Assembly: GCA_017535435.1 (NCBI GenBank)
Contig: JAFXTY010000060.1
Span: 654 to 64,653 of the forward strand
Reading direction: 5' to 3'
Length of the DNA stretch: 64,000 bases
DNA from: Spirochaetia bacterium
GTDB lineage: Bacteria > Spirochaetota > Spirochaetia > CADAEX01
A program made the translations under genes and the position numbers. Positions 8,413 through 63,996 of this stretch are shown here, in pieces. The notes below the pieces were generated by a model. It saw only the letters and a list, made by a program, of their open reading frames with translations, ran no database searches and was not told where the DNA came from. The stretch's first letter is position 1; each line of letters opens with the position of its first letter.

Positions 8413-9693
8413 ATGGATAAATATGTTATTGAGGGTTCTTATCCGCTTAAGGGCAAGATCAAAGCCAGTGGAAACAAAAATGCGGCGCTTCCATGCCTTG
8501 CCGCAGCACTTCTTACAGACGAGGAAGTAATACTGGAGAACATTCCTGAGATCGAGGATGTGGCTGTGATGGTGAGGATTCTCAAACAGCTGGGTTCCAA
8601 GGTCACCTGGATGGGAACCAATAAATATTCCATCAAGACAACAGATATAAAGAAGGCCGAGATTCCAGCCGCCGAGGCTAAGGCTGTCCGGGCCTCCATC
8701 CTGTTTGCAGGACCGCTTCTTGCAAGAACCGGTAGCGTCACTTTTCCACCTCCGGGTGGCGATGTAATTGGCCACAGAAGGCTTGATACCCACTTCCTTG
8801 CATTCACCGAGCTGGGTGCCCGGGTTTCTGCCGATGGCGTATACAAAGTCACTGCCAACAAGCTGGTGGGAGTTGATCTGTTTCTGGATGAGGCTTCTGT
8901 AACAGCTACCGAGAACGCTATTATGACAGCTGTGCTGGCCGAGGGTCAGACTGTTATTCAAAACGCCGCCTCTGAACCCCATGTTCAGGATCTCTGTAAT
9001 ATGCTGGTCTCCATGGGTGCTAAAATAGAGGGAATCGGCTCTAACATACTTAGAATCAAAGGTGTGTCAAAACTCCATGGCACCACTTTCCGCATAGGCT
9101 CTGACTTCATGGAGGTGGGCTCCTACATAGGTCTTGCGGCTGTTACCCACAGCAGGCTGGAGATAATCGATGCAGAGCCCAAGAACCTGCGTATGGCAAA
9201 AATTGCATTCGGCAAGCTGGGAATAAGCTGGGAGACCAGCGGCAATTCGATCCTTATCCGTCCACGGCAGGAGCTTAGGGTAAAGCCTGATATGGGAGAC
9301 CAGATTCCATCCATAGACGATGCTCCATGGCCAGGATTCCCACCTGATCTGACCAGTATTGTGACTGTAGTTGCCACCCAGGTGAGCGGTACTGTCCTGA
9401 TCCACGAGAAGATGTTTGAATCCAGGATGTTCTTTGTGGACAAGCTTATAGAGATGGGAGCCAAGATTGTGCTGTGCGATCCCCACCGGGCTGTGGTGAG
9501 CGGTCCTGCCGCCCTCAAGGGCTCCAGCATGGTATCTCCTGATGTCCGGGCTGGTATGGCTATGGTAATTGCTGCGTTGTGCGCAGAGGGAAAGAGTACT
9601 ATAAGCAATATCTACCAGATAGAGCGGGGCTACGAGAACCTGGCTGCCAAGCTTAAGAACCTGGGTGCGAAAATAGAGCGGATCTCCGACTGA
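8413..9693 (+). CDS. murA: UDP-N-acetylglucosamine 1-carboxyvinyltransferase
   Basis: 426 aa; MDKYVIEGSYPLKGKIKASGNKNAALP... canonical MurA N-terminus and EPSP-synthase fold repeats; RBS AAGGTGG upstream. Confidence 0.93.
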   Translation: MDKYVIEGSYPLKGKIKASGNKNAALPCLAAALLTDEEVILENIPEIEDVAVMVRILKQLGSKVTWMGTNKYSIKTTDIKKAEIPAAEAKAVRASILFAGPLLARTGSVTFPPPGGDVIGHRRLDTHFLAFTELGARVSADGVYKVTANKLVGVDLFLDEASVTATENAIMTAVLAEGQTVIQNAASEPHVQDLCNMLVSMGAKIEGIGSNILRIKGVSKLHGTTFRIGSDFMEVGSYIGLAAVTHSRLEIIDAEPKNLRMAKIAFGKLGISWETSGNSILIRPRQELRVKPDMGDQIPSIDDAPWPGFPPDLTSIVTVVATQVSGTVLIHEKMFESRMFFVDKLIEMGAKIVLCDPHRAVVSGPAALKGSSMVSPDVRAGMAMVIAALCAEGKSTISNIYQIERGYENLAAKLKNLGAKIERISD

Positions 9694-12900: not shown

Positions 12901-13989
12901 ATGGATTCTATAGGCGCAATTCTTAAGGGAGCCAGAGAAGAGAAAAAGCTTCCTCTGAACCAGGTTTCATCCGATACTCATATTCTTCCGGGCTATATTC
13001 TGGCAATAGAGGAAAACCGTTTTCAGGACTTGCCGGGAGAGGCTTACTGTGCAGGTTTCATCGGCACTCTTGCCCGTTATTATGGACTTGACAGTGGAAG
13101 CCTGGTGGCTATGTTCAGGGGAGTTCCCGAGAAGGAGAGATCTGCCCCTAAGCCTAAGCCGAAAGCTCCTGTAGTAAAAACTGAAAAAAAGAATAAAGTC
13201 CCGGTGATACTCATCATTGTGATTCTGATTATCATGGGAGCAGCAATCTGGTTTATCCTTTCTGGCAATAAGAGTCAGGAGGTGGTTGCACCGGAGCCTG
13301 TGGCCCAGCAGGAAGAACCGAAGGCAAATGTATATGTGATGAACGAGGTCCTGTTTGAGCGATCTTTTGCAGAGAATGATATAGTGCAGGTGCAGCTGGG
13401 GGAAAGCTCTTCCGAGATTGCATGCAGAACAATCGGATCCTCTGTGCTGCTGGGAATCAGAAGCGGTAATGTCCTTCTGACCCCATCCCAGGAGAAGCTT
13501 TTGGACCTGAACGGTGATTCCAAGAATGATGTCAAGGTCACCCTCAAGGATGTCAATCCAGAGGCAAAAACTGCAATCATCCGGATAGACCGGGCTTTGG
13601 AGGCTCCTGTACCGCCTCCGCTGCCGGCTATTTCCATAGCAGCCAAGCCGGAATCAATAATAATGCATGACAAGGGCAGCGTGACAGTCCTTGCTTCTCC
13701 GGTAAAGCGGAACTTCATCATGGAGGTGAACTTCAGCGGGCCATGCATGTTCCGGTATCAGGCAGACAGCAATAAGAGTGCAGAAAAATATTATAAAGCT
13801 GAAGACCAGGTGCGCCTTGAGGTGGCTGACCAGGTCAGAGTATGGCTTTCCAATGCCGGTCATGCCAAGATTCTTATTGGTGATGCAGAGATAACCCTGG
13901 GCAACAAGGGTGATATCACATCAGAGAAAATCGGCTGGGAAGAGGCTGGGGATAAATCCTTCAACCTTTCAATTGTTGCAATGCACTGA
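12901..13989 (+). CDS. RodZ-like membrane protein (N-terminal XRE-type HTH, one TM, C-terminal periplasmic domain)
   Basis: 362 aa; N-term HTH (…KLPLNQVSSDTHILPGYILAIEENRFQDLPGEAY…), Lys/Pro-rich linker, TM VPVILIIVILIIMGAAIWFIL, C-terminal beta-rich domain; architecture typical of RodZ. Confidence 0.5.
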   Translation: MDSIGAILKGAREEKKLPLNQVSSDTHILPGYILAIEENRFQDLPGEAYCAGFIGTLARYYGLDSGSLVAMFRGVPEKERSAPKPKPKAPVVKTEKKNKVPVILIIVILIIMGAAIWFILSGNKSQEVVAPEPVAQQEEPKANVYVMNEVLFERSFAENDIVQVQLGESSSEIACRTIGSSVLLGIRSGNVLLTPSQEKLLDLNGDSKNDVKVTLKDVNPEAKTAIIRIDRALEAPVPPPLPAISIAAKPESIIMHDKGSVTVLASPVKRNFIMEVNFSGPCMFRYQADSNKSAEKYYKAEDQVRLEVADQVRVWLSNAGHAKILIGDAEITLGNKGDITSEKIGWEEAGDKSFNLSIVAMH

Positions 13990-48424: not shown

Positions 48425-48445
48425 TTATTTTATTAGCAAGTATTT

Positions 48446-48474
48446 AGCCCCGGGACAACCCCGGGGCTTTTTTA
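48446..48474 (+). terminator. rho-independent terminator (AGCCCCGGG-ACAA-CCCGGGGCT + T6)
   Basis: Perfect 9-bp GC-rich stem and T-run 22 nt after dapA stop; marks end of the core operon and start of accessory segment. Confidence 0.85.
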
Positions 48475-48557
48475 TGCTTGCGTTTTTAAACGGTACAAAT
48501 GCTTACCAGAAATGAAGCTGTTAGTTTCAACATAAATTCATTTTCAGGAGGTGTTTT

Positions 48558-49226
48558 GTGCAAAACATCAATTTTTTACCATGGATTGGCAAAAATTATC
48601 AGACAGGCCTCGGTCCAAAAGGTCTTCGGGTGCTGGTTTTAGGCGAAAGTCACTATTGTTTCACCCTTGGACAGGGAAAATGTCCAGGATGTTCACTTAA
48701 GAATTGTATTGCCGCAGGTTTTACAAAGGAAGATTTCGAGCAGCAGACAATAGAGTACATCAAGGATATCCTCTATAACAACAAAGGATTGCCTTATCAA
48801 CAGACAGCATTAAGCTTTGAGAGGGCAATCGTGGGCAAGAAGAAACTGACTCAGGCAGAGCGGGAGGATTTTTGGAACAGTGTTATCTTCTATAATTATA
48901 TTCAGAAGTCGCTTCCAAAGCTTGATGGAAAAAGGACAGAGTTCACAGTAAATGACTTGGTTGGTTCAGATTCTGCATTTGATTTCATACTTGGTACATA
49001 TTTGCCTGATCTCATCATTGTCTGGGGGTTCAGGCTGTTCAAAATTTTGCCTCCCTGGGGTTCTGTCCGGTCAGAGCTGGAGCTACCATCGGGAGAAAAG
49101 ACGGATATCAGGATGTATTATGTCTGTGGGAAAAGCATTCCAGCCATAAAGGTGGCTCATCCAAGCTGTCCAAAGGGTCGTCAGTGGGAGTACTGGCATC
49201 AGTTCTACGATGTATTTTTGAATTGA
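48558..49226 (+). CDS. hypothetical Cys-containing protein (first gene of accessory segment)
   Basis: 222 aa; GTG start 6 nt after AGGAGG; Cys cluster CFTLGQGKCPGCSLKNC plus HPSCPKG; no family recognised. Confidence 0.5.
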   Translation: MQNINFLPWIGKNYQTGLGPKGLRVLVLGESHYCFTLGQGKCPGCSLKNCIAAGFTKEDFEQQTIEYIKDILYNNKGLPYQQTALSFERAIVGKKKLTQAEREDFWNSVIFYNYIQKSLPKLDGKRTEFTVNDLVGSDSAFDFILGTYLPDLIIVWGFRLFKILPPWGSVRSELELPSGEKTDIRMYYVCGKSIPAIKVAHPSCPKGRQWEYWHQFYDVFLN

Positions 49227-49245
49227 GATTCTGAAGTCTGCTTAC

Positions 49246-49306
49246 ATATCGGCAATATATAAATGGTATATAAAGTAAAAATACCACTTTATATTTTGCC
49301 GATATT
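49246..49306. promoter_or_regulatory. inverted repeat ATATCGGCAA(49246-55)/TTGCCGATAT(49297-306) flanking an AT-rich hairpin upstream of the Fic gene; candidate operator/promoter region
   Basis: 10-bp perfect reverse-complementary arms ~40 nt apart; TATATA-like -10 candidates between and after them. Confidence 0.35.
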
Positions 49307-49322
49307 GTGTTATTATATAGAC

Positions 49323-50192
49323 ATGGGAAAAGTAGATTATCTGCAGGTCGCCGATATAGCCAAAGCATGGGAAGTCTCAGACCGCAGTGTGCGGAACTAC
49401 TGTTGCCATGGGCGGGTCCCTGGGGCCATCATTGCCGGCAAGACTTGGCAGATACCTGCAGATACCCCTAAACCAAAGCGGCAGATTCGTCATTGCAGGA
49501 AAAAAGAGGAGACTGTTCTGGAGCAGCTTAAGAGGGAAAAGGATTCTGGGTTTAAGGGAGGGATGTACCATCGTATACAGATTGATTTTACTTATAACTC
49601 TAATCATATAGAGGGCTCCCGCCTGACTCCGGAGCAGACCCGCTATATCTTTGAGACCAACACCATCGGGATAACCGATAAAAGCGTCAATGTAAATGAT
49701 ATCATAGAGACAGTGAACCACTTTCGATGTGTAGATCTGGCTATCGAAGGGGCCAAGTCAAAGCTGACCGAAAGTTTTATCAAGCAGCTTCATTTTATAC
49801 TTAAGAACGGAACCTCCGATTCCCGGAAAAGCTGGTTCAAGGTTGGCGAATACAAGCTGCTGGAGAACGAGGTAGGTGGCATGGAGACAGCGGCCCCCGA
49901 AGATGTGAAGCCCCGGATGAAGGAACTCCTTGCCTGGTACAATGCAAAGAAGGTTGTGACCTTGGATGATATTCTTGATTTTCATGTACGGTTTGAGCGT
50001 ATCCATCCGTTCCAGGATGGAAACGGCAGGGTGGGGCGGCTGATTATGTTCAAGGAGTGTTTAAAAAACAACCTAAAACCGATTATAATAACCGAACAGC
50101 TCAAGTGGTTCTACTACCGCGGTCTCAAGGAGTGGTTCCATGAGCGTGGTTTTCTACGTGAGACTTGTCTGGAGGCAATGGAGGGGGTATAA
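49323..50192 (+). CDS. Fic-family protein (AMPylase-type) with N-terminal excisionase-type HTH, class II auto-inhibited
   Basis: Canonical Fic motif HPFQDGNGRVGR; upstream inhibitory-helix motif SNHIEG ([ST]xxxE[GN]) in same polypeptide; N-term MGKVDYLQVADIAKAWEVSDRSVRNYC HTH. Track ORF starts 60 nt earlier (49263) inside the promoter-like AT-rich region. Confidence 0.85.
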   Translation: MGKVDYLQVADIAKAWEVSDRSVRNYCCHGRVPGAIIAGKTWQIPADTPKPKRQIRHCRKKEETVLEQLKREKDSGFKGGMYHRIQIDFTYNSNHIEGSRLTPEQTRYIFETNTIGITDKSVNVNDIIETVNHFRCVDLAIEGAKSKLTESFIKQLHFILKNGTSDSRKSWFKVGEYKLLENEVGGMETAAPEDVKPRMKELLAWYNAKKVVTLDDILDFHVRFERIHPFQDGNGRVGRLIMFKECLKNNLKPIIITEQLKWFYYRGLKEWFHERGFLRETCLEAMEGV

Positions 50193-50201
50193 TTTATAGG
50201 T

Positions 50202-51815
50202 ATGAGTGATAAAATAATTATAAAAAAAGAAGATGAAGGGATACAAAGACTTGAAGTTAGTAACGAAGTTGTTGATAGGCTTAATAATATTTTTCGACGT
50301 GTAATTTGGAGAGACCCTGAAGGAAAAAACGAAGGTTATTTTGACATAAATAAAGATATATCTTTTCATAAAGATCTCTGTGATAAAATATTAGAGAAGA
50401 AAGTATCTGATTATAGTATTGTTGAGATTTTTTATTCTAAGAAAAAAGATGATTCGAAATATGAATACTTATTGCCACCTGAAAAAGAGTTTAAACAGAT
50501 TGATATTAATGAATTTAATACTTTTAAAAGCGAGCCTAAATATACTGAAGGTGGTTATTACTATCTCTTTAATAAATGTTTTATTGAAAAGAATTTTGTA
50601 AAGAATCTCGGAATACCGACAAATAAAGAAGATGGTTTCTTCCCATTATGGAAAGAGTATGAGCAATTTGAAAAGAAAGAATGGATTTGTCAATATCTCT
50701 ATAGGCAGGCACGTTTTAACTGGTATAATAGCGGAAATATAAATTTTTATTATAAACCTGCACAGCCATGGGTAGAATTTTATCATTTTTGCCAATTTTG
50801 CTATACATTAGTTAGAGCCGGGCTTGAAGTGAAAAAAGACAATAAAGGAAAACAGCTGAAAGAGTATAAAAACGATGGATATAAATATCTTATAGATAGA
50901 TATCTTGGGGAAAATATAAAAAAAATTAATAAAATTAAAAAAATAATATCAGATACAAAGGGAAAAACAAGTAAAAAGCAGGATTCATCTTTAGAAAAAC
51001 TAGAAAAAGAGTATTCTTATATAATGGGAAATATCGAATATGGAATAGAAGATGATTCAAAACCATTTCATATAAAAAGCCTTAAAGAAACAATTTTACA
51101 AATAAATTTCCATAAAGTCCATAATAGTTATCAAAAGTATAATTTTTTTAGTTTTGATTCTAATGATTGTGAATCTATTAAAAATATATATAAGAAATTA
51201 AATGACAAAGATTCTGAAGGTGATTACAATATTAGTTTAAAAAATTATTCTCAAATGTTTGATTATATTTTAAAGCATATATCACAATTGTCTAAAGAAG
51301 ACAAGGATACTATAACCTATATTTTTAAAAAAAAGAACTTTAAAAAAAATCCGGAATGCTATGATAAAGATACTGAGACAGAAGGCAATGATAAAGATAC
51401 TGAAGAATCTGAGAATAATGCTTCCCCAGAAAAACATATAATAAGTGGATCAGAAGGTGCTGATGAAATAATGTACAAGAAAGCCCAAGAAGAGAAAATA
51501 ATTAAGATTACTATAAAGATTTTTTGCAAACAATTCCCTTTCGATGAAAGATTTGTTCATTGGTTGAATGGATTGAATAGTTATGAGGAACTTGAATCCT
51601 TTCTTGTTGCGTTTATTCAGCTTAGTAAAAAGGGTAAAGTAAAGGAAGATCTTGCTGAGAAGAAAGTTAAGAATATGCTAATTGATAAATACAATGAAAT
51701 GGAAAATCTAAAAGAATACAGTGATGAAATAATCTCTCTTTTTGAGGAAAGGGTTAAGAAAGTTAAGGATTTGATTAAGAGGAAGTATAATGGAAAAAAT
51801 GACCTTTCTGAATGA
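50202..51815 (+). CDS. hypothetical protein, AT-rich cassette gene 1 (Lys/Asp/Glu-rich)
   Basis: 537 aa uninterrupted ORF in ~1/3-GC DNA; 9 nt after Fic stop; contains internal tandem DKDTE(T/E)EG repeat; no NTPase/nuclease motif found by eye. Confidence 0.55.
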   Translation: MSDKIIIKKEDEGIQRLEVSNEVVDRLNNIFRRVIWRDPEGKNEGYFDINKDISFHKDLCDKILEKKVSDYSIVEIFYSKKKDDSKYEYLLPPEKEFKQIDINEFNTFKSEPKYTEGGYYYLFNKCFIEKNFVKNLGIPTNKEDGFFPLWKEYEQFEKKEWICQYLYRQARFNWYNSGNINFYYKPAQPWVEFYHFCQFCYTLVRAGLEVKKDNKGKQLKEYKNDGYKYLIDRYLGENIKKINKIKKIISDTKGKTSKKQDSSLEKLEKEYSYIMGNIEYGIEDDSKPFHIKSLKETILQINFHKVHNSYQKYNFFSFDSNDCESIKNIYKKLNDKDSEGDYNISLKNYSQMFDYILKHISQLSKEDKDTITYIFKKKNFKKNPECYDKDTETEGNDKDTEESENNASPEKHIISGSEGADEIMYKKAQEEKIIKITIKIFCKQFPFDERFVHWLNGLNSYEELESFLVAFIQLSKKGKVKEDLAEKKVKNMLIDKYNEMENLKEYSDEIISLFEERVKKVKDLIKRKYNGKNDLSE

Positions 51816-52530
51816 GCTTATGAATGCTAATGGTATCTCTATTGCAGATATTTCAAGGTGTCATAATTGCAAGTTTTTTAAAAATTTAAAATACAATGAA
51901 ATATTTAAATGTAATATAAACAATGATAATTCTTTGGCAGTAACTGTTGCTGAGTTATTATATCCAGAAAAAGTGAAGTATATAAAGAATTATTTATTTA
52001 AAGATTCTAAAAATTGGCGAAAAGATTTGGTAAATTATGGCAAACAGTACAAAAAAATAATTATTACTGCAATGTTATTTGATACAGATTTCTATGTATA
52101 TGCCAGTAACTGGTGCTATCTTATGAGATTAGCCGCAGATCAGTATTATGCCAGACATAAAGAAAAAAAATTCTATGTGCTTGACCGGCCCGCTGAGGGG
52201 TATGGTGCAAAGATTTTTGATATTGGAGAGCCAATGGTGCTGGAGGGCACCGGAGTTCTGACTGTGGCTGGCAGATATATTCATGAAGATAATGAAGGGG
52301 ATCCCAGTAAAAAGATAATGAAGACTACCTTTAATTTTGAGTTTGGAAAGGAAGTATTGGAAGGGAAAGACGTTAGAATAACTATAGAGTGTGATGATAA
52401 TGTTAATAAGACTAGAGAAATAGTAATTGATTCCAGGTCTCTACAGGATGGAAAGAATAAAGTTCATAAAACTGTCGACCTAGATTTTGAGAATGGTTTT
52501 GATATTTCTGTAAAAAAAAATATCCTCTAG
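51790..52530 (+). CDS. hypothetical protein, AT-rich cassette gene 2
   Basis: 246 aa; overlaps gene 1 by 26 nt (translational coupling); Cys pair CHNCKFF…C; no family recognised. Confidence 0.5.
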   Translation: MEKMTFLNELMNANGISIADISRCHNCKFFKNLKYNEIFKCNINNDNSLAVTVAELLYPEKVKYIKNYLFKDSKNWRKDLVNYGKQYKKIIITAMLFDTDFYVYASNWCYLMRLAADQYYARHKEKKFYVLDRPAEGYGAKIFDIGEPMVLEGTGVLTVAGRYIHEDNEGDPSKKIMKTTFNFEFGKEVLEGKDVRITIECDDNVNKTREIVIDSRSLQDGKNKVHKTVDLDFENGFDISVKKNIL

Positions 52531-52576
52531 AGAAATTTCTTTCCCCATAAAATCATTATATGGGTAGGAGGAAAAA

Positions 52577-54553
52577 ATGGAAATACTGATTCCAATTGTA
52601 GAAAAAACTGTAGAAGGAAAAACTGAAGTATCATTTCATAGCATAACTAATGTTTACCAGAGAGAGCTTGCCCGAGGTGGAGTAATCGCTGTCAACGAAT
52701 TTGATGAGGAAACAAAGTTTGATGAAGAAACGAAAGGAATATTTGGACAAGATTTGAACCCCTGTCAGGTCATGGTCGAGCCAAGACCCGCTACAGGCAA
52801 GGAAATATCTGCCAATGACATTGTGCTCTTACCAGCAATACCGCTTGGGATATTGCTGGCAATTGAAAAGATGATTAATTATAGATTCTTCAAAGAATAC
52901 TATGACATACTGATTGTTGCAGGCTATGTCGAGAATGGCATATTGAAAGCCATCAATGATAGTCAGCATATTTATGAAGAAGCAAGTAATAATAAGTATG
53001 TTGCACGTTTAATCTCAAATAAGAAGCGAGTTCAATTCCTATATGTGGCCAATGATGATATCGAGATTGTGACAAACAATAATGAAACTCACTGCTGGGA
53101 TGGTACTTATCCTATTTCTGTTTTTCGATTTGCCCCTGATATTCCATATGCCAATATTCTTGAAGAACTATTCACAGTCGTAGGTAATAAAATTGTATAT
53201 TATCCGAATTGGGTTGAGAACGATGGTCTGCCATGGGGACGGAAAGAAAACGATTTTTCAAGAGAAGATATAAAGTATAGAGATGCTTCATATATGTTCA
53301 CATATAAAGATGATGAACTTAAGAGTGTTAGAAAAATTAACAGTGCTGGATTGCCCTATGCCTATTCAGGTCCAATAGATAATCCTGTGTTTCAAGAGTT
53401 TTATTACCATGATTCTGATAAATCTGATAAACCAAATATAACAGTTCTCTACAAGACAAAATCTGGGAATACTGTATATAGAAAAGAGATTAAGAGAGAG
53501 AGTAATAATTCTTATAAGGTGACCTTCTATAACTGCTTGGATGCAGGTCCTTTCTTCTTTAACAGTGATTTTATGGAATATAAGCCTGAAACAATTGACA
53601 GTGTTTGCTCTTTGCCAGATGCATTCATAGGAAAAGAGTGGCTAGTAGAATGTAATCAGCATGGCTTCGTGACTAGCAAGCTTGCTACAAGAAGTAATAA
53701 TGAAATATATGGTATGGAATATTCCTATGATGAAGACGATAAAGCAGGCAACATTTGTAAGGAATATTTTCTTGGTCAAGATGGCAAGCCAATTACTGTC
53801 AATGGGATTGTTGGATATGAAATGCAGTATGACAATAATAATAATATGACAGAGCGGAAGGCATTGGATGCAGAATATAAAAATCTGAATAGAGCTAAAT
53901 TTGAATATGATGAGAACAACAGACAGGTTCGCTGCGAGCTTTATGATAGTCAAGGTAAGTGTCATGTGGTAAAGACAAACTGGAAAAACTTTCCCCGGAC
54001 AATAGAGACAGATTATGGTCATAGCATCTTAAGAAGAAAGTATGATTGGCTTGGATACTGTGTATCCCTGGCAGTTCTTGACGACAAGAATAAACCGACT
54101 TGTGGTAGAGTAGGTAATGCTCTATGCTCAGAGATTCGAAGAGTGTTTAATGAGGGAACTCTGCCAATTGAAATCTCATACCGAGATGAAGAACAAGAGC
54201 TTGCTTGTCGGGATGATGGAGTAGCTGTCATAAAGACCAAGTATGATCCTGATAAAAATATAGCAAAAGAGACTTATCATGGAATATATGGAAATGCAAC
54301 AGAAGATGAACGTGGAATTGCTCAGATAAAGCAATATTATGAATATTATAAAGATGGAAAAATTGGAAGGTTTATATTATTATATAGATTGTCAGAGCTT
54401 GATGATTTATATAAAGATGAAATCCAATTGGGTGAGATTAAGGATGGATTAGCTTGGTTTATGTCAAATCCTGTGAAAGTTCCCAATTTGGCCATAGATA
54501 TAAATGCATATCTTTATAACTTACCCCAAATACCGTTGCCTCTCCATTTTTAA
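52577..54553 (+). CDS. hypothetical large protein, AT-rich cassette gene 3
   Basis: 658 aa; AGGAGG RBS; Asn/Tyr/Asp-rich, no Walker A or known catalytic signature seen. Confidence 0.55.
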   Translation: MEILIPIVEKTVEGKTEVSFHSITNVYQRELARGGVIAVNEFDEETKFDEETKGIFGQDLNPCQVMVEPRPATGKEISANDIVLLPAIPLGILLAIEKMINYRFFKEYYDILIVAGYVENGILKAINDSQHIYEEASNNKYVARLISNKKRVQFLYVANDDIEIVTNNNETHCWDGTYPISVFRFAPDIPYANILEELFTVVGNKIVYYPNWVENDGLPWGRKENDFSREDIKYRDASYMFTYKDDELKSVRKINSAGLPYAYSGPIDNPVFQEFYYHDSDKSDKPNITVLYKTKSGNTVYRKEIKRESNNSYKVTFYNCLDAGPFFFNSDFMEYKPETIDSVCSLPDAFIGKEWLVECNQHGFVTSKLATRSNNEIYGMEYSYDEDDKAGNICKEYFLGQDGKPITVNGIVGYEMQYDNNNNMTERKALDAEYKNLNRAKFEYDENNRQVRCELYDSQGKCHVVKTNWKNFPRTIETDYGHSILRRKYDWLGYCVSLAVLDDKNKPTCGRVGNALCSEIRRVFNEGTLPIEISYRDEEQELACRDDGVAVIKTKYDPDKNIAKETYHGIYGNATEDERGIAQIKQYYEYYKDGKIGRFILLYRLSELDDLYKDEIQLGEIKDGLAWFMSNPVKVPNLAIDINAYLYNLPQIPLPLHF

Positions 54554-54555
54554 TC

Positions 54556-54598
54556 TGAGCGGGACTGAGTAATCAGCCTCGCTTTTTTTATTTTTTTT
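54556..54598 (+). terminator. probable terminator (imperfect hairpin + T7ATTTTTTTT)
   Basis: AGCGG…CC(T)CGCT stem with internal CTGA/TCAG hairpin followed by long T-run immediately after cassette gene 3. Confidence 0.45.
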
Positions 54599-54701
54599 CT
54601 AAAATTTTAATTTTTGTTACCCCAAATATCTATATGAACTATTGAGAGGGCAAAATGGCGTGTTTCGCCATCCCCTCATACATATTAAGTGGAGGAAAAC
54701 T

Positions 54702-55550
54702 ATGAAGAAAGCTTTCATTGCTGTGGACGGTATCTTTGGATTTGACCTGTTCCAGCATGGTAAGGAGCAGTACCACAAGGTACTTGATTTCGGTGGACTC
54801 ATTCAGGATGTCTGCCAGCGTCTGGGGACAAAAGGTGACTGCCAGGTCTTGGTTCCAAAGGTCTTAAGGCGGTGCTACATAGGGGCAACAACTAAGTGCT
54901 GGAATCCAGTCAGGAGAGAGTACGAGACTGCGCTGAGAAATGCCAAGTTCGTAATGCCCGGCAGGCCGCTTTGCAGCAACGGCAAGGAAAAGGGGATAGA
55001 CACTTTGCTCTTCTCTGAAGTCATAGAGGCTGCTCGGTATGACTATTTTGATTACCTAGTGCTACTGACTGGAGATCTGGATCACATCACACTGGTTCAA
55101 GATCTCAAAGAGATGGGGAAGGAAACCATACTGCTCACAGGGAAGGTATGTGGCGAGGATGGTTTGGAGAAGACTGGTTACTCAAAGGAACTTGAGAACA
55201 ACTGTATGGAAACAATAGATATATTTAGCCTTATTGGCGAACCTAAGGTATTTAAAGATGTCCCTGCCATTCCTGCTGTCGCAGCAGATAAGAAGCAGAT
55301 TCCGCAGGTCGTACAGGCAATTGTGGAAATAATGGCAGAGAAATCAAAGGAGGTGGGGAAAACAGCGGTCTTTGCCTACCAGGATATGGTTGAGGCACGA
55401 TTAGTCCAAAACGGCACACAGCTGGGTATGCCACTAGGCGAGTATCTGGTTTCCTTCCCGACAATTTTCAAGGTTGGGTGTGTCTGGTTCTCCCAGAGGA
55501 AGACAGTGTCACTTATTAACACCACTAATACTCTTAAGGAGGTAATATGA
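54702..55550 (+). CDS. NYN (LabA-like, PIN-fold) nuclease domain protein with C-terminal OST-HTH/LOTUS-like domain
   Basis: Start at MKKAF after GGAGGA (track ORF begins 54642). NYN motifs FIAVDG, GKEKGIDTLLFSEVIE, DYLVLLTGDLDHITLVQDLKEMGKETILL; C-terminal ~90 aa helical LOTUS-like segment. Confidence 0.65.
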   Translation: MKKAFIAVDGIFGFDLFQHGKEQYHKVLDFGGLIQDVCQRLGTKGDCQVLVPKVLRRCYIGATTKCWNPVRREYETALRNAKFVMPGRPLCSNGKEKGIDTLLFSEVIEAARYDYFDYLVLLTGDLDHITLVQDLKEMGKETILLTGKVCGEDGLEKTGYSKELENNCMETIDIFSLIGEPKVFKDVPAIPAVAADKKQIPQVVQAIVEIMAEKSKEVGKTAVFAYQDMVEARLVQNGTQLGMPLGEYLVSFPTIFKVGCVWFSQRKTVSLINTTNTLKEVI

Positions 55551-55614
55551 TCACTTTAGCAATCATAGCGTTTATTATCTCAAAACTGTGAGAAGCGAAG
55601 GAAAAATAATAATA

Positions 55615-55803
55615 ATGACTTTTGAAGAAATTAAGAAGCAGATTGAAATAGGCAATCTTGAGTGGAAAGAACTGCTTACTATGAGGGCTTTATTCCCAAA
55701 GTATCGGCAGGATTTAAGACACGAAGTAATTAAGAGGAACATCCCCTGGTGGATGCCATGTAAGGATTGGATTGCGAAAAGAATTGAGAAAAAGATCAAC
55801 TAA
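55615..55803 (+). CDS. small hypothetical protein (62 aa from MTFEEIKK…)
   Basis: Short ORF between NYN and DUF1232 genes; Trp/Lys-rich; weak RBS; could be non-coding. Confidence 0.3.
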   Translation: MTFEEIKKQIEIGNLEWKELLTMRALFPKYRQDLRHEVIKRNIPWWMPCKDWIAKRIEKKIN

Positions 55804-55813
55804 GGAGTAAAAA

Positions 55814-56215
55814 ATGAAATATAACTATGACGACAAAGACCTCAGCAGAGAGTTTGAGGCAAGAAAATCAACTTCTACAAAAGATGTGGATAATGTGCTG
55901 AAGAACGAGGAGAAAATCAAGAGGATGGCGAAGAAGGGAGCGCTGGCCAAGTTCTTTGGAGACATCGTACTGTTTTTCCAGCTGCTGGGTGATTATACCA
56001 GAGGAAGATACCGGAAGGTTCCTTTGCGGACGATTGCCGCTATTGTAGGCGCATTGGCCTATGTCTTGAGCCCTATAGACATTATCCCAGACTTATTTCC
56101 GGTAATCGGTTATGTAGACGATGCCGGAGTGATGGCCCTCTGCCTGAAGCTTGTTCAGTCAGATATCGACCATTATCGTACATGGAGAGAGGGTAACAAC
56201 AAGAAAGCTGCGTAA
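55814..56215 (+). CDS. DUF1232 (YkvA-like) membrane protein
   Basis: 133 aa; signature …PIDIIPDLFPVIGYVDDAGV… typical of DUF1232. Confidence 0.65.
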   Translation: MKYNYDDKDLSREFEARKSTSTKDVDNVLKNEEKIKRMAKKGALAKFFGDIVLFFQLLGDYTRGRYRKVPLRTIAAIVGALAYVLSPIDIIPDLFPVIGYVDDAGVMALCLKLVQSDIDHYRTWREGNNKKAA

Positions 56216-56374
56216 TTATCAATGGGGCGCCCTGCTTTTTTTGCAGGGCGATATTTAGAGTCCAACATTGAACCCCCAGAAAATCATATAAAAAGTAGAG
56301 AAGATTAAAAGGGCAGCCTGACAAGGGCAATTTTGAATTGAATAGAGCGCCATAGGGCTACCAAAGGAGGACAG

Positions 56375-57364
56375 ATGAAAAAGAGAAAATTAGTTAGGGG
56401 ATTAGTCGAATTTGTACTGGTCATGGCATTCTTGTTCACAGTTGTTATCTGCATTGGGGACAGGATAAGATTGTCTGGCCACAAGGAGCCGGTGTTCGAA
56501 AACGCAAAAGTGGTACCCGAAGCGAACTATAATTTGAATGCGGAGACACAAATGGCTATGGCTACTGCAAAGGAAGTTGCATATCAGTATGCTTGCGACG
56601 AGTTGGACAAATGGATAGCAGAGATAATGAAAGAGACAGACCGTTTCGCTAATGAATATTTTGAATATGGAGCAGAGAACAGCCGGGGGCTTTCAGCAGT
56701 CTACCATGATGTAATGCATAAGTTGATTAGTTCGCATAAGACAGCAAACGAAGCATTGATGGAAGACTTGGAGCAGCAGATTTCATGTCATCTTTTTAAC
56801 AAAGAGGCAGCACAGGCAAGAATTACAAACATAACAAACGAAACTGTAGCGGTCTACATGAAGACTTTTGGCCGGGAATTAGCCAAGATTCAGGAGAAGC
56901 ACAGTATACCTCAGCCAGTGTGGGACAAGCATATTTACCATCTCTGCTCCATAACCGCAGGCTTTGACTCAAGAAGTGTTCCTATGACAACTAAAGTTGT
57001 TGTCTCAACAGCAGCCGGTATTACTCTTAAGGTTGCAACTCCACTTGTTGCCAGAGTTGGACAGCATGTAGGAGAGAAGTTTGCTGCCAAAGCAGGGACA
57101 AAATTTGTTGCTAAAAACTTTGGGAAGTGGATTCCCGGACTTGGAACGGTTATTGCAGCAACAGTAATAGGCTGGGATTTGATAGATTACAAGCTGACTG
57201 CAGAGAAGAACAAACGTGCTCTTAATGCAGGGTTTGATTTGTATTTTCAGGAGATGAAAACCGAACTTCTTGGACCGACTGACGACAGCATCATGGGGTC
57301 TATTACCCTGTTGGAAAACAACATTAAGTCTAAGCTTGCTTTAAGTAAGGAGGACACAATATGA
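56375..57364 (+). CDS. uncharacterised single-pass membrane protein, paralog A
   Basis: 329 aa; N-in TM (VEFVLVMAFLFTVVICIG), long helical domain, C-terminal Gly/Ala-rich hydrophobic segment (…GLGTVIAATVIGWDLIDY…) and conserved tail QEMKTELLGPTDDSIMGSI. Confidence 0.6.
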   Translation: MKKRKLVRGLVEFVLVMAFLFTVVICIGDRIRLSGHKEPVFENAKVVPEANYNLNAETQMAMATAKEVAYQYACDELDKWIAEIMKETDRFANEYFEYGAENSRGLSAVYHDVMHKLISSHKTANEALMEDLEQQISCHLFNKEAAQARITNITNETVAVYMKTFGRELAKIQEKHSIPQPVWDKHIYHLCSITAGFDSRSVPMTTKVVVSTAAGITLKVATPLVARVGQHVGEKFAAKAGTKFVAKNFGKWIPGLGTVIAATVIGWDLIDYKLTAEKNKRALNAGFDLYFQEMKTELLGPTDDSIMGSITLLENNIKSKLALSKEDTI

Positions 57365-58344
57365 AAAATTATATCAGGATTATATGCTATCTGATTGCTG
57401 CTGTATTTGTTATAACAGTTGTTACCATATTTGGCTATTCCAACTCTTCAGAGCCGGAGGCCCCGCATTTTGAAAGCAGACAGATAGAAGAGAAGGAGTT
57501 TGTCTTTGACCACAGGATAGACATGGAAATACTTGATTCCTTGGACTTGGCTGAACAGAAGGCCAAAGAATATGCAGCCGGACGGCTTGATCGTTGGATT
57601 TCTGGGTTGATGGTGCGTACTGACAGTTTCCTTGACGAATATTTTAACCTGCTCAATGTCAAAAAGAGAGAGGTATCTGCAGCATGGCATACCGTCAGTC
57701 ATAAAATCAGCAAGAGTTCACCTTCGGCAGAAGATGTCATTATGGATGACCTGATGGCAAGATTTGAAGAGAAGGTTCTTAACCGGAATGATGCACAGCG
57801 GATGCTGGAGGATATAGGTAACAACGCTATAATGGTTTTTATTGACTTATTTGAACATGGCCTTGATTTGATTAAGGAAAAGTATAGTGTACCTGAACAG
57901 GACTGGACGAAACATATTTCCAGTTTGTGTGGCTATGCGGCAGACTTTGAGGCACGGCGGGTATCTATTATAGCCAAGATCTCAATAGCGAGCTCAGCTG
58001 TACTTGGAACGGAAGTTGCCTATAGAATTGTGTCCTCCGTTGTTAGTAAGCTTGGAAAGAATCTTGCAATTAAAGCTGGAACAAAGGCAGCCGGTTCAAC
58101 AGGAGCAAAGGCCGTAAGCAGTGCTGTCCCGATTGTTGGTTTTGCTATCACAGCAGCTGTAATAGGCTGGGATATCTATGACTCTATCACCACTTCAGAA
58201 CGGAATAAACGGGATATGCGAGCTGGAGTTGAACAATATTTCCAAGAAATGAAGGCATATCTTCTTGGCCCAGCCCAGGACAGCATCATAGGCTCTATTG
58301 TTTTATGGGAAAAAGAAGTACGGAACAGGATTCAGACACGATAA
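57361..58344 (+). CDS. uncharacterised single-pass membrane protein, paralog B
   Basis: 327 aa; ATGA overlap with paralog A; alignable along its length (…AVIGWDIYD…, QEMKAYLLGPAQDSIIGSI; KYSVPEQDWTKHISSLCGYAADFEARRV vs KHSIPQPVWDKHIYHLCSITAGFDSRSV). Confidence 0.6.
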   Translation: MKNYIRIICYLIAAVFVITVVTIFGYSNSSEPEAPHFESRQIEEKEFVFDHRIDMEILDSLDLAEQKAKEYAAGRLDRWISGLMVRTDSFLDEYFNLLNVKKREVSAAWHTVSHKISKSSPSAEDVIMDDLMARFEEKVLNRNDAQRMLEDIGNNAIMVFIDLFEHGLDLIKEKYSVPEQDWTKHISSLCGYAADFEARRVSIIAKISIASSAVLGTEVAYRIVSSVVSKLGKNLAIKAGTKAAGSTGAKAVSSAVPIVGFAITAAVIGWDIYDSITTSERNKRDMRAGVEQYFQEMKAYLLGPAQDSIIGSIVLWEKEVRNRIQTR

Positions 58345-58355
58345 GGAGGAAAGGA

Positions 58356-58589
58356 ATGACATTAAACTATTTTATGAACTTGCTTGAGGACCATGGATGG
58401 GATGTTGAGAGTGACCCTCTTTGTTTTACTAATGGAAATGCCGAGATTCACATTGGGTTTAATGAGTATGACGAAGAATATATTGAAGATGGTGCTCTTC
58501 TTTGTCATGTCACATGGATCAAGTTTACAAGGCGAAGTATGACAATTTTTTGGGATGATGGCGATAGTTGGAGATATAACTATTGGTGA
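58356..58589 (+). CDS. small acidic Trp-rich hypothetical protein (77 aa)
   Basis: Start MTLNYFMN… 6 nt after GGAGGAAAGGA; 12 nt downstream of paralog B; acidic, aromatic-rich. Confidence 0.4.
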   Translation: MTLNYFMNLLEDHGWDVESDPLCFTNGNAEIHIGFNEYDEEYIEDGALLCHVTWIKFTRRSMTIFWDDGDSWRYNYW

Positions 58590-58701
58590 AAGAAAAATAG
58601 GGTATTTTAAGCCCTATAAGAGGGGGATAGAATTATTGAGGGCGACGTCCAAACCTGCAGGGGAGTTGCCATATTTGAACCATAGAGAACCTCCTTACTT
58701 T

Positions 58702-58735
58702 GGGGGACCGAGCAATCGGTCTCCCCTTTTTATTT
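58702..58735 (+). terminator. rho-independent terminator (GGGGGACCGA-GCAA-TCGGTCTCCCC + T-run)
   Basis: GC-rich stem with one bulge, followed by TTTTTATTTT; separates membrane-pair operon from patatin-LRAT unit. Confidence 0.6.
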
Positions 58736-58799
58736 TCAGAGTTGGGTGGAATAATCTTCGTGAATACTGTAATCTCTTATATGGGAGAAAGCTAATACT

Positions 58800-59879
58800 A
58801 TGTTTTTCAAGCGTAAGATAGGGTTAGTTCTGGCAGGGGGCGGCGGCAAAGGAGCGTACGAGCTCGGTGTCTGGAAGTACCTGTCAGAGATAGGCCTTAT
58901 CAAGAAAATATCTGTTATCTCAGGCTCTTCGGTAGGGGCGCTGAACGCCATCCTGCTGAACCTATGTGATTTTGATACTGCTGTAGACATATGGACTACC
59001 CAGCTTGAGAGCAATATCCTTGACTTCAAATCCACCACAAAGCGGTCCGGGGCTATCTTCAGCAGGGAAGGGCTCTATCGGATTATGGAGCAGCTGGATT
59101 TCAGCAAGCTGCCTGCACTTAAGAAAAAGATATATGCAACCTGCCTCAATACTGATACTAAAAAACCTGAGAGCTTCTGTCTGAACAATTATGACGAAGA
59201 GACTGTGAAGCAGCTCCTGTGTGCCACCAGCGCCATTCCCCTTGTGTTCCAGGGTGAGAAGATTTTCGGAAACAACTATATTGACGGTGGTTGGGGAGAT
59301 GAGGTCCCTATCCAGCCTCTGCTGGATGAGGGGTGCACCGATGCAATCGTGGTGAACCTTAAGCGTAGTTATCATGTGGATTATTCCGGCCTTGGGATCA
59401 ATACAGTTGTGATTCATCCAACTGTCAACCTGGGGGACAACTGGTTTGGTATTCTTGACTTCTCTGCCAAAGGGGCACACAGACGGATGAAGCTGGGCTA
59501 TGATGACTGCAGAAGAAGGTTTGCACCACTCCTTAAGACATTGCGGGGACACTTGAGCTTCAGCCTCAGCGGTGTCCGGGCCAAGAAGATAAATGCCATG
59601 ACTGACGAGGAAATCCTTCAGAGGACCTTGGAGGTGATATCTGCCCATCCTGAGCATCTTAATGAAATACAGGGGTATTTCAACATCGATTTCCTGACGG
59701 CCGGTGGCGAGGTGTTCTGGAAAGAGCTGGCAGAATATCATGGCTGGCGGTTCCAGGAGAACAATATCACCAGACATATAAGACTGATTGATCCCACCAA
59801 TTTCCGCCGGGCCTGGGGCAGGAGACGGCAGCTGGTGGATTACTGCCGCTCTTTTTTAATTGGACAGTTGGCGAAATAG
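58800..59879 (+). CDS. cytoplasmic patatin-like phospholipase
   Basis: 359 aa, no signal peptide; oxyanion LVLAGGGGKGAYELGV, nucleophile GSSVGALNA (GxSxG), catalytic IDGGWGDEV (DGG). Confidence 0.85.
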   Translation: MFFKRKIGLVLAGGGGKGAYELGVWKYLSEIGLIKKISVISGSSVGALNAILLNLCDFDTAVDIWTTQLESNILDFKSTTKRSGAIFSREGLYRIMEQLDFSKLPALKKKIYATCLNTDTKKPESFCLNNYDEETVKQLLCATSAIPLVFQGEKIFGNNYIDGGWGDEVPIQPLLDEGCTDAIVVNLKRSYHVDYSGLGINTVVIHPTVNLGDNWFGILDFSAKGAHRRMKLGYDDCRRRFAPLLKTLRGHLSFSLSGVRAKKINAMTDEEILQRTLEVISAHPEHLNEIQGYFNIDFLTAGGEVFWKELAEYHGWRFQENNITRHIRLIDPTNFRRAWGRRRQLVDYCRSFLIGQLAK

Positions 59880-59903: not shown

Positions 59904-60368
59904 ATGACAAGTATCACTGAAAAAGTTCCGCTCTCTGGCGATGTGATAGTCGCAGACCGGGGATTATACAAGCACTATGGTATTTATATCGGGAACGGCC
60001 GGGTCATCCACTATTCGGCTGGCATGGGCATAGAGCTGGATGCAGCCAAGGCTAAGATAATCGAAACTTCCCTTGCTGAATTCCTGGATGGCAGCGCCCT
60101 CTATGTGGAGGAGTCGGATGAGCCGGGCGCCTTCCCGCCGGACCGTGTGGTGGAGAGGGCCAGATCCATGGTGGGCCACCTACATGGCGAGTACAACATT
60201 GCCTTCAACAACTGTGAGCATTTTACCCACTGGTGCAAATACGGAACTAAAGAGTCGAGCCAGGTGAACACGGTCCTGAAGGCAGTGGTGGGCGTGGCCG
60301 CCATTGCCTTGGGACTTGCCGCCGGGGGCAAGTTCCTGGGCGGGAAGGGTGGAAGAGGCCTGCTTTAA
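59904..60368 (+). CDS. LRAT/PLAAT-like (NlpC/P60 superfamily, H-box/NCEHF) protein with C-terminal membrane tail-anchor
   Basis: 154 aa; His box HYGIYIGNGRVIHY and catalytic-Cys motif NCEHFTHWC as in LRAT/HRASLS acyltransferase-phospholipases; C-terminal VLKAVVGVAAIALGLAAGGKFLGG hydrophobic tail; 24 nt after patatin gene, GGAGG RBS. Confidence 0.7.
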   Translation: MTSITEKVPLSGDVIVADRGLYKHYGIYIGNGRVIHYSAGMGIELDAAKAKIIETSLAEFLDGSALYVEESDEPGAFPPDRVVERARSMVGHLHGEYNIAFNNCEHFTHWCKYGTKESSQVNTVLKAVVGVAAIALGLAAGGKFLGGKGGRGLL

Positions 60369-63150: not shown

Positions 63151-63996
63151 TCAACTTTCCAGAAATAATTTTATTTTTTCCAGCCGTTTCTCTGCAACTT
63201 GGCGTCCTGCTTCGTAGCACCGCTGCAGTTCATCAGGATTATGCTCTATCCGGGATATTCCCAGAGGTTTCTCAGGGCACAGCACTATAGCCTTTCCCTC
63301 TTTCTCCTGCTGGAATGCATAATCGTGCTGCCGGTTGTAATCGATATGGCGGTTCTCCATCTTTGCAAGGAGCTTGGGATAGCGGCGCAGAGAAAGTCGC
63401 ATTGGCTTTATAAGGGAATCAGGCTCTTTGATGAAATCCTTTGGCTGGGTCAGAATCACAATGTTCTTGTCGTAGCCCATCTCCTGGAACTTTGCCAGGG
63501 GGATTGAGTCGGTCATGCCTCCATCCAGAAGCTTGTAGCTGTCCACCTTCACCACGCTGGAGACTAATGGCATGCTGGCGCTGGCTCTCATCCATGTAAG
63601 GTCGGTTCCATATCCTGTCTTCAGCTCCTTGTAGATAGGTTCCCCAGTGAGGCAGTCTGATACCACCACGTAAAAGCGCATAGGGTCTTTGGCAAAGGTA
63701 TCGTAGTCGAAAAGATCCAGCTTGTTTGGAATCACATTGTAGCAGAAGTCGGCGCCATAGAGGTCGCCTGTAAGGAGCAGGGATCGGAGGCTGCAGTACC
63801 GCCAGTTGCGGGCAAAACGCTTGTTGTACCGTATTACACGGCCTATCTGATGTGATTTATAGTTGCAGCCGAAGGTGGCGCCGGCGGAGACGCCGATTGC
63901 GCCGTCAAATTTGATGCCGTGCTCCATCAGCACATCGCAGACACCGGCGGTGAACATGCCCCGCATGGCTCCGCCTTCCATTACCAGTCCAGTCAT
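63151..63996 (-). CDS. patatin-like phospholipase
   Basis: 281 aa; LVMEGGAMRGMFTAGV (GGxRG), GVSAGATFG (GxSxG), LLDGGMTDSIPL (DGG). Confidence 0.85.
   Translation of the reverse strand: MTGLVMEGGAMRGMFTAGVCDVLMEHGIKFDGAIGVSAGATFGCNYKSHQIGRVIRYNKRFARNWRYCSLRSLLLTGDLYGADFCYNVIPNKLDLFDYDTFAKDPMRFYVVVSDCLTGEPIYKELKTGYGTDLTWMRASASMPLVSSVVKVDSYKLLDGGMTDSIPLAKFQEMGYDKNIVILTQPKDFIKEPDSLIKPMRLSLRRYPKLLAKMENRHIDYNRQHDYAFQQEKEGKAIVLCPEKPLGISRIEHNPDELQRCYEAGRQVAEKRLEKIKLFLES

Follow-up and report, generated by a model that had tools for sequence, protein, structure and literature searches.

A tandem pair of membrane-anchored proteins from a variable spirochaete island, likely related to the trunk and paddle of dynamin-like proteins

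Introduction

Two overlapping genes of a rumen spirochaete encode proteins of about 330 amino acids (aa) that belong to no named family, and the question that they raise is what these proteins are related to and what they might do at the membrane. The genes, called A and B here, lie in a stretch of 64,000 nucleotides (nt) of contig JAFXTY010000060.1 (assembly GCA_017535435.1, positions 654 to 64,653 of the forward strand), which we call the window and whose first letter is position 1 of all window coordinates. Its source organism is a metagenome-assembled genome (MAG) of a rumen Spirochaetaceae, whose DapA is 100% identical to the one in RUG13243. A first-pass annotation, made by a model from the sequence and without database searches, had described an operon of two paralogous membrane proteins and a small acidic partner, and had suggested a toxin/immunity or a membrane-remodelling system linked to the lipid-modifying genes downstream.

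We describe here the family to which A and B belong, which present annotation leaves blank, and its likely relation to part of the dynamin-like proteins. Dynamin-like proteins are thought to couple the hydrolysis of guanosine triphosphate (GTP) to membrane remodelling and, to our knowledge, just one bacterial dynamin system has been validated in defence, and it depends on its P-loops. Our literature search found nothing on dynamin-like pairs without GTPase in defence islands or cas1 operons.

The A–B pair and its family

The pair and the transcription unit in which it lies comprise the following features, each in an open reading frame (ORF) except for the last:

56375–57364, + strand: gene A (gene 1), ORF of 329 aa, with a signal-anchor helix at about residues 5–30, a helical trunk at 54–197, Gly/Ala-rich hydrophobic segments at about 206–227 and about 251–270 with a Lys-rich loop in between, and C-terminal helices at 271–324
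57361–58344, + strand: gene B (gene 2), 327 aa, paralogue of A with the same architecture
58356–58589, + strand: small acidic, Trp-rich protein of 77 aa, with AGGAGG before its start
58702–58725, + strand: hairpin resembling an intrinsic terminator, 10 pairs, 7 of them G-C, then CTTTTTATTT

The stop codon of A and the start codon of B share the letters ATGA (aatATGAaaa, 57361–57364), and an AGGAGG precedes the start codons of both genes. A BLASTP comparison aligns the two proteins over 319 residues with 34% identity (E = 2e-66), which is far beyond chance and establishes them as paralogues, and the alignment contains the blocks VIGWD(L/I)(I/Y)D and YFQEMK..LLGP..DSI.GSI. Both proteins start with a strongly hydrophobic helix (Kyte-Doolittle mean over 19 residues of up to 2.7) and carry two weaker Gly/Ala-rich hydrophobic segments around residues 207 and 252. 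The overlap, the paralogy, the quoted blocks and the hydrophobic regions had all been reported by the first-pass annotation and were confirmed, as were the acidic, Trp-rich ORF (15 Asp plus Glu, 4 Lys plus Arg, 5 Trp) and the terminator downstream of the pair; the gap between B and the small ORF needs correction from 12 to 11 nt. An alternative reading of that ORF from 58305 would give 94 aa, and the AGGAGG sits right before 58356. The small protein is probably co-transcribed with A and B, and the hairpin is predicted to close the unit. Its proposed role as a partner was not sustained, as it was found only in the near-identical strains L003–L007 (93% identity; numbers with L denote the loci and genomes compared) and had no homolog at any other family locus. 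It gave no family match in Pfam, NCBIfam, PADLOC or PHROGs scans, and from its distribution we judge it to be lineage-specific and no conserved component of the A–B module.

Scans of Pfam, NCBIfam and PHROGs returned no usable match for A, B or the small protein, and for these three collections the earlier remark that no family could be assigned to the pair is correct. An exhaustive HMMER search with a profile of nine sequences, in which hits were counted as cluster representatives, retrieved 316 of them at E<=1e-3 and 99 at E<=1e-30, the majority being 320–400 aa long and matched over their full length. Some 316 clusters in an exhaustive search argue for a real, unnamed family, which a word-indexed protein search badly under-reported (7, 9 and 3 hits). 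Neither A nor the family profile retrieved any PDB sequence. In an alignment of 100 members the nearly invariant positions are aromatic (W80, F91, Y95, F96, W183 and W267), plus D271, and look structural rather than catalytic. A weak match to DUF1512 (E = 3.5e-4) was dropped, being present in just two of the 100 members.

Extra domains occur in few members, one of which has a C-terminal WD40 propeller and another an N-terminal DUF5678 plus aspartyl protease. At L038 8691–12106 (CP091467.1) the WD40-fused member, 701 aa, stands behind a broken NB-ARC-like gene, and the fusion may be genuine or may have arisen by rearrangement. The ORF upstream of it, considered as a possible paralogue, was ruled out as the broken NB-ARC gene.

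The genome scan did not find the pattern of the close subfamily in GTDB representative genomes, and the plasmid search gave one match only, a single-copy member on a Microvirga megaplasmid. No phage copies and no IMG/VR copies of the family were found, and the scan of JGI metagenomes yielded short contigs only.

Relation to dynamin-like proteins

B matches the PADLOC profile LeoBC weakly (E = 0.015), with its residues 38–322 on profile positions 324–555 of 601. When 100 family members were scanned with PADLOC, 11 matched LeoBC (best E 9.5e-8), three matched LeoA (best E 8.9e-7) and one matched LeoB, and the ranges matched (332–559 of 601 in LeoBC, 331–503 of 559 in LeoA) are the part of these profiles that is not the GTPase. 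Thus, residues 34–318 of P0013, a B-type member 47% identical to B, align with LeoBC 332–554 (E = 1.7e-6), while residues 61–335 of P0008, the second gene of the L033 pair, align with LeoBC 334–559 (E = 2.1e-7) and its residues 136–309 with LeoA 331–500 of 559 (E = 8.9e-7). These ranges indicate that the whole protein past the N-terminal anchor corresponds to the post-GTPase part of the Leo dynamins.

Comparison with individual dynamins gave scores for A of 9.6 with Drp1, 9.6 with MxB, 8.7 with BDLP (242 residues aligned), 8.4 with IniA and 7.2 with LeoA, and for B of 9.5 with MxB, 9.5 with BDLP, 9.4 with Drp1, 9.1 with the MxB stalk, 7.8 with IniA, 7.4 with LeoA and 6.3 with OPA1. As in dynamins, a helical trunk or stalk bundle is built from helices before and after a putative membrane-binding tip. 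At the position of the paddle, A and B have the two Gly/Ala-rich hydrophobic segments and a loop rich in Lys and Arg, where the confidence of the model is low.

The GTPase domain itself is missing. A transmembrane helix stands at the start of the proteins, the alignment with Leo occurs only at profile positions of at least 324, no Walker A motif is conserved (a chance match to G....GK[ST] was seen in only 3 of the 100 members), and Pfam and NCBIfam gave no match to a GTPase family. As this is the defining test, the family is not dynamin in the strict sense. We nevertheless consider it likely that A and B are homologous to the trunk and paddle of dynamin-like proteins.

Two other candidates were discarded. 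LeoC had been considered as a precedent for a stand-alone stalk and was dropped, since it is an N-terminal GTPase fragment plus an anchor (PMC4159319). The PADLOC candidate PDC-S29 covered about 55 residues of the Gly/Ala/Lys-rich region only (profile 144–199 of 220, E = 6e-6) and was not full-length.

Membrane topology

Statistics of topology were collected over 99 family members. The N-terminal helix has a median hydropathy of 2.35 and reaches at least 1.6 in 95 members; of its flanks, the N-terminal one is the more positive in 67 members and the less positive in 12. Hydropathy is marginal in the two tip segments (medians of 1.54 and 1.62), and the loop between them has a median of 33 residues, with 6 Lys or Arg against 1 Asp or Glu. 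By the positive-inside rule we infer that the N-terminus and the Lys-rich loop are cytoplasmic and that the trunk and the C-terminal helices are periplasmic, in which case the C-terminal helices would be packed back onto the trunk on the outside. With its trunk in the periplasm, such a protein would be cut off from GTP, and the missing motor would make sense.

An old duplication

With the family profile, two adjacent members were found in the window, L001/L002, L011, L012, L033, L013 and L014/L015. These tandem pairs represent five lineages and their order is conserved. The proteins of two distant pairs have the following lengths:

L013 pair: 389 + 338 aa
L014/L015 pair: 519 + 344 aa

The gene-1 proteins of L001, L011, L012, L033 and the window cluster together in a neighbour-joining tree, apart from a clade of their gene-2 partners, and L013 and L014 are divided in the same way. 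Separate clades for the two genes mean that the duplication predates the lineages and that gene order was kept since, and such an old duplication with conserved order argues for A and B being two non-redundant subunits. The first-pass annotation had staked its reading on linkage of the two paralogues in other genomes, and that linkage is conserved. Most bacterial dynamins come as two genes of one operon whose products work as heterotypic oligomers (PMC4159319; PMC6104087); at the gene level, pairing in one operon is seen here in five lineages.

CRISPR and defence-island contexts

In L001/L002 the pair is encoded within a type III-A CRISPR locus. The locus starts with cas6, cas10, csm2 to csm5, a CARF protein and three unknown genes, continues with a CRISPR array of at least six 35-nt repeats (9266–9650) and then with A, B, cas1, cas2 and cas2, separated by gaps of 12, 9, 0 and 6 nt, and ends with a second small array, DUF1232 and LRAT genes. 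Two metagenome contigs show the orders array-A-B-cas1 (L011) and A-B-cas1 (L012). From this arrangement the pair is predicted to be co-transcribed with cas1-cas2 in one spirochaete lineage, the three contigs counting as one because their Cas1 proteins are nearly identical (88–91%). The Cas10 of L001 has the GGDD motif and its CARF protein the HEPN motif RNQIAH, so that the locus has a canonical cyclic-oligoadenylate effector of its own, and the place of the pair is in the adaptation operon. Domain scans found no CARF or SAVED match in the A/B family, and the model shows an all-helical fold with no Rossmann-like domain. The location within a type III cas locus is seen in L001/L002, L011 and L012 and is not shared by the window or five other lineages; the window contains no CRISPR repeat and no cas homolog.

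Several details of these loci are recorded as observations in their own right. Over its N-terminal 89 residues, the Cas1 of L001 (12029–13033) is 91% identical to that of L012 (2027–2293), and the pair proteins of the two loci are only 57% and 42% identical; this mismatch suggests very fast evolution of the pair or replacement of a cassette. The two consecutive cas2 genes of L001 span 13034–13609. Between the CARF-HEPN gene and the first array (L001 7038–8931) lie genes for a hydrophobic protein of 60 aa and for proteins of 211 and 332 aa, the last with a weak match to sigma-70 region 3 (E = 1.3e-5).

The distant pair of L013 stands among MmeI-type restriction-modification, PIN, helicase, GmrSD and DISARM-like genes and that of L014 among DUF499/DUF3780 and toxin-antitoxin genes and transposases, and the WD40-fused member of L038 has MazE/PIN, an NB-ARC STAND protein and HindIII restriction-modification nearby. 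Altogether, five of about eight informative loci adjoin CRISPR-Cas, restriction-modification, GmrSD, DISARM-like, STAND or toxin-antitoxin genes.

Recurrent neighbours

The genes that flank the A–B unit in the window and recur elsewhere, together with a hairpin upstream, are the following:

55814–56215, + strand: small membrane protein of the DUF1232 (YkvA) type, 133 aa; Pfam PF06803, E = 3e-15
56228–56250, + strand: hairpin cgccctgc-ttttttt-gcagggcg, directly after the DUF1232 stop codon; read from the sequence and not called by the terminator scan
59904–60368, + strand: LRAT/NlpC-P60-type protein with a C-terminal hydrophobic tail; Pfam PF04970, E = 5e-28

The hairpin at 56228–56250 may be a terminator or attenuator that parts DUF1232 from the A–B unit. 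Each of the four lineages that make up the close subfamily has a DUF1232 gene near its family members, at varying positions:

Window: reference, directly upstream of A
L001: 50% identical to that of the window, about 3 kilobases downstream of the pair
L009: 39% identical, upstream (near a single-copy member)
L033: 54% identical, downstream

These identities track those of the A proteins, and the DUF1232 protein is likely a functional partner. A literature search on DUF1232 found nothing relevant. LRAT is found near the pair in three of the four lineages and in different gene orders, namely in the window, L001 (53% identity) and L033 (51%), and it adjoins DUF1232 in the latter two. L033, a close relative of the window organism, also carries Fic (84% identity) and patatin (74%). 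Since LRAT is present in other genomes without the pair, gene context marks it as a loose associate. The module is best restated as the pair plus DUF1232, loosely, with or without LRAT.

Two further ORFs were noticed beside these genes. One, at L033 4400–4762, encodes a Gly/Ala-rich hydrophobic protein of 120 aa right after the pair in L033–L035, and the other, at L033 4772–5200, is 62% identical to a 74-aa gene beside LRAT in L001.

The island in the window

A variable island that separates dapA from patatin holds the pair:

48427–58797, strand not assigned: dapA-patatin island, G+C content 0.29–0.43 against about 0.50 elsewhere

From dapA to rlmE the order is a 222-aa ORF, Fic, ORFs of 537, 246 and 658 aa that match no family, NYN, a 71-aa ORF, DUF1232, A, B, the 77-aa ORF, patatin and LRAT. 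We compared the loci of sister MAGs with the window by blastn. In L016, the closest sister genome (93% DNA identity), window position 48426 is joined to 58798, so that the 10.4-kilobase island is absent and patatin and LRAT are kept. L017/L019 have a different insert at this site, with an M42 peptidase, a radical SAM protein, an SNF2 helicase and a helix-turn-helix (HTH) protein; L018 and L024 have only Fic between dapA and patatin, and L021–L023 lack patatin too (dapA-LRAT). These differences identify the dapA-patatin/LRAT interval as a variable hotspot. LRAT without the A–B pair is kept in L016 and L020–L023, and the retention of both patatin and LRAT in L016 means that an obligate link of the pair to patatin fails. 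The association with lipid enzymes that the first-pass annotation had drawn from the patatin/LRAT genes downstream thus survives in part for LRAT, in three of four lineages, and is not obligate for patatin, since relatives have LRAT or patatin plus LRAT without the pair.

The remaining genes of the island were inspected for themselves. Three consecutive ORFs (537, 246 and 658 aa) occupy its part of lowest G+C content (50202–54553; 0.29–0.36). They have no match in Pfam, NCBIfam, PADLOC or PHROGs and no homolog at other family loci, are conserved only in the near-identical strains L003–L005 and could be a separate defence module. The NYN-domain protein at 54702–55550 (Pfam E = 1.4e-6), just upstream of DUF1232 and the pair, has no homolog in other family loci; PMC11346440 describes a CRISPR-associated NYN ribonuclease of type III systems. 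The Fic/DOC protein at 49263–50192, with a weak N-terminal HTH match, shares 84% identity with the Fic that stands beside patatin in L033, and L018 and L024 have it too; the Fic and patatin genes of these spirochaetes seem to go together. Residues 269–348 of the window patatin (58800–59879) are 41% identical to a stand-alone 91-aa ORF (L033 5931–6206), and this C-terminal region may be a separable domain. A second ORF that looks patatin-like from its translation (281 aa) lies on the minus strand at 63151–63996; it begins with GGAMRG and contains GVSAG, which resemble the glycine-rich and GxSxG motifs of patatins.

Discussion

We give about an even chance to a reading in which A and B, as relatives of the dynamin trunk, make up a heteromeric module of defence islands that remodels membranes independently of nucleotides. 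The two proteins would form a hetero-oligomer, as paired bacterial dynamins do, and their scaffold would be permanently anchored by the signal-anchor helix, which stands where the GTPase and neck would be. It would assemble on the cytoplasmic membrane without nucleotide hydrolysis, would bend, tether, seal or occlude that membrane, and would act against phage as a defence-island module, perhaps together with DUF1232. The accessory place of the family in defence islands, its predicted co-transcription with cas1-cas2 in one lineage and its association with DUF1232 in the close subfamily make protection against phage at the membrane the most likely role, perhaps in a protective rather than a suicidal direction. 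Of the two ideas offered by the first-pass annotation, membrane remodelling fits the homology to the trunk and paddle regions of dynamins, and the toxin/immunity reading found no direct support. If true, our reading means that the stalk-paddle scaffold has an independent, nucleotide-free function, in which trunk and tip were kept, the motor was dropped and an anchor was gained.

Several results weigh against this interpretation. Only 11% of the members reach the Leo profiles, and ten members of a large distant clade gave no Leo match in the PADLOC scan. The best Foldseek match in the PDB (E = 0.046) was not significant, and the family profile retrieves no solved dynamin by sequence. The tip is modelled with low confidence (predicted local distance difference test, pLDDT, below 50 at residues 198–246 of A), and a topology with three transmembrane segments is uncertain because the tip segments are only marginally hydrophobic. 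Single-copy members exist in L009, L032, L036, L037 and L039. The evidence from gene context comes from about eight loci, a small sample with no genome-wide statistic. Finally, as Leo-like defence needs its P-loops, a version without the motor may work quite differently.

Among the alternatives, the pair could be a membrane-disrupting effector of abortive infection or toxicity, a binary alpha-helical pore former of the XaxAB, YaxAB or ClyA type for which the small acidic protein or DUF1232 would be the inhibitor or immunity protein. Two paralogues of about 330 aa with an elongated helical bundle and a hydrophobic hairpin do resemble binary alpha-pore-forming toxins, AhlC, XaxB, PaxB and ClyA are among the weak Foldseek matches, the small acidic protein shares the transcription unit of A and B, and the pair sits in a conflict or defence island beside patatin, Fic and LRAT. 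A and B have no significant structural similarity to the ClyA/XaxAB toxin fold and are not secreted soluble protomers, and we regard this explanation as unlikely. The same island might also be incidental, the pair being a factor of envelope maintenance or cell biology outside conflict, like DynA, IniA or PspA. PMC8844932 and PMC6715688 describe housekeeping roles of characterised bacterial dynamins in membrane repair, and the single-copy member on the Microvirga megaplasmid has no obvious defence context; such a role is hard to reconcile with the patchy distribution of the family, its absence from the closest sister genome at the same site, its low-GC DNA, the lack of the close-subfamily pattern among GTDB representative genomes and the repeated restriction-modification, toxin-antitoxin, STAND and CRISPR neighbours, and it seems to us quite improbable.

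The cas1 operon raises one more alternative, in which the pair is an accessory of CRISPR adaptation that tethers or regulates Cas1-Cas2 at the membrane, for instance where phage DNA enters, the window copy being a remnant or exapted. The order array, A, B, cas1(-cas2-cas2) with gaps of 9–12 nt in L001/L002, L011 and L012 speaks for it, as do the effector of L001 that responds to cyclic oligoadenylate, with which the pair is not needed as an interference effector, and the many uncharacterised membrane proteins that are statistically linked to type III loci (10.1101/270033). However, the three CRISPR-linked contigs are one lineage, neither a CRISPR repeat nor a cas homolog is found in the window, L009, L013, L014, L033 and L038 are CRISPR-free as well, and A and B are devoid of CARF, SAVED and nucleic-acid-binding domains. 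Across the whole family we hold this explanation to be very improbable, and for the L001 lineage less so. A bolder extension of the membrane-remodelling module would make these motor-less relatives of dynamins a stand-alone anti-phage barrier on the periplasmic face of the cytoplasmic membrane, with one lineage coupling membrane events such as phage DNA entry to spacer acquisition through co-expression with Cas1-Cas2. We offer it as a long shot; if true, it would be a physical link between membrane sensing and CRISPR adaptation. Many membrane proteins of type III CRISPR loci are uncharacterised, and the pair offers a concrete candidate among them, unusually placed in an adaptation operon.

Comparison with known systems

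The closest known relatives are the Eleos/Leo systems (LeoA plus LeoBC; Michie et al. 2014, PMC4159319). A two-gene Leo-like operon is a validated system of defence against jumbo phages; 60% of its occurrences lie next to defence genes, and mutations in its P-loops abolish defence (Millman et al. 2022, preprint 10.1101/2022.05.11.491447). The two-gene arrangement and the defence-gene neighbourhoods are also seen for A and B, but these are about 330 aa long instead of about 560–600, lack GTPase and neck and carry an N-terminal transmembrane anchor, so that the P-loop requirement cannot apply to them. In B. subtilis, DynA keeps the membrane intact and so delays lysis by phage (PMC8844932). Nostoc BDLP1, mycobacterial IniA and Campylobacter DLP1/DLP2 are soluble or peripheral GTPases whose action on the membrane is coupled to nucleotide state or tetramerisation, whereas A and B would be permanently anchored and motor-less, with a trunk that is probably periplasmic.

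The membrane effectors of type III CRISPR systems (Cam1, Csx23, CorA, Cam2/Cam3; PMC11229360) resemble A and B in being membrane proteins inside type III loci, as seen in L001, L011 and L012. Unlike them, A and B have no CARF, SAVED, REC or other nucleotide-sensing domain, belong to the cas1-cas2 operon, apart from the effector genes, and most members of their family are CRISPR-free. By description, there is an analogy, of architecture alone, with mitofusin/Fzo1, in which a pair of hydrophobic segments stands in for the tip, their connecting loop lies across the membrane and attachment is permanent (PMC6104087). The Lys-rich loop of 33 residues in the A/B family fits this hairpin arrangement, the difference being that mitofusins carry a GTPase domain.

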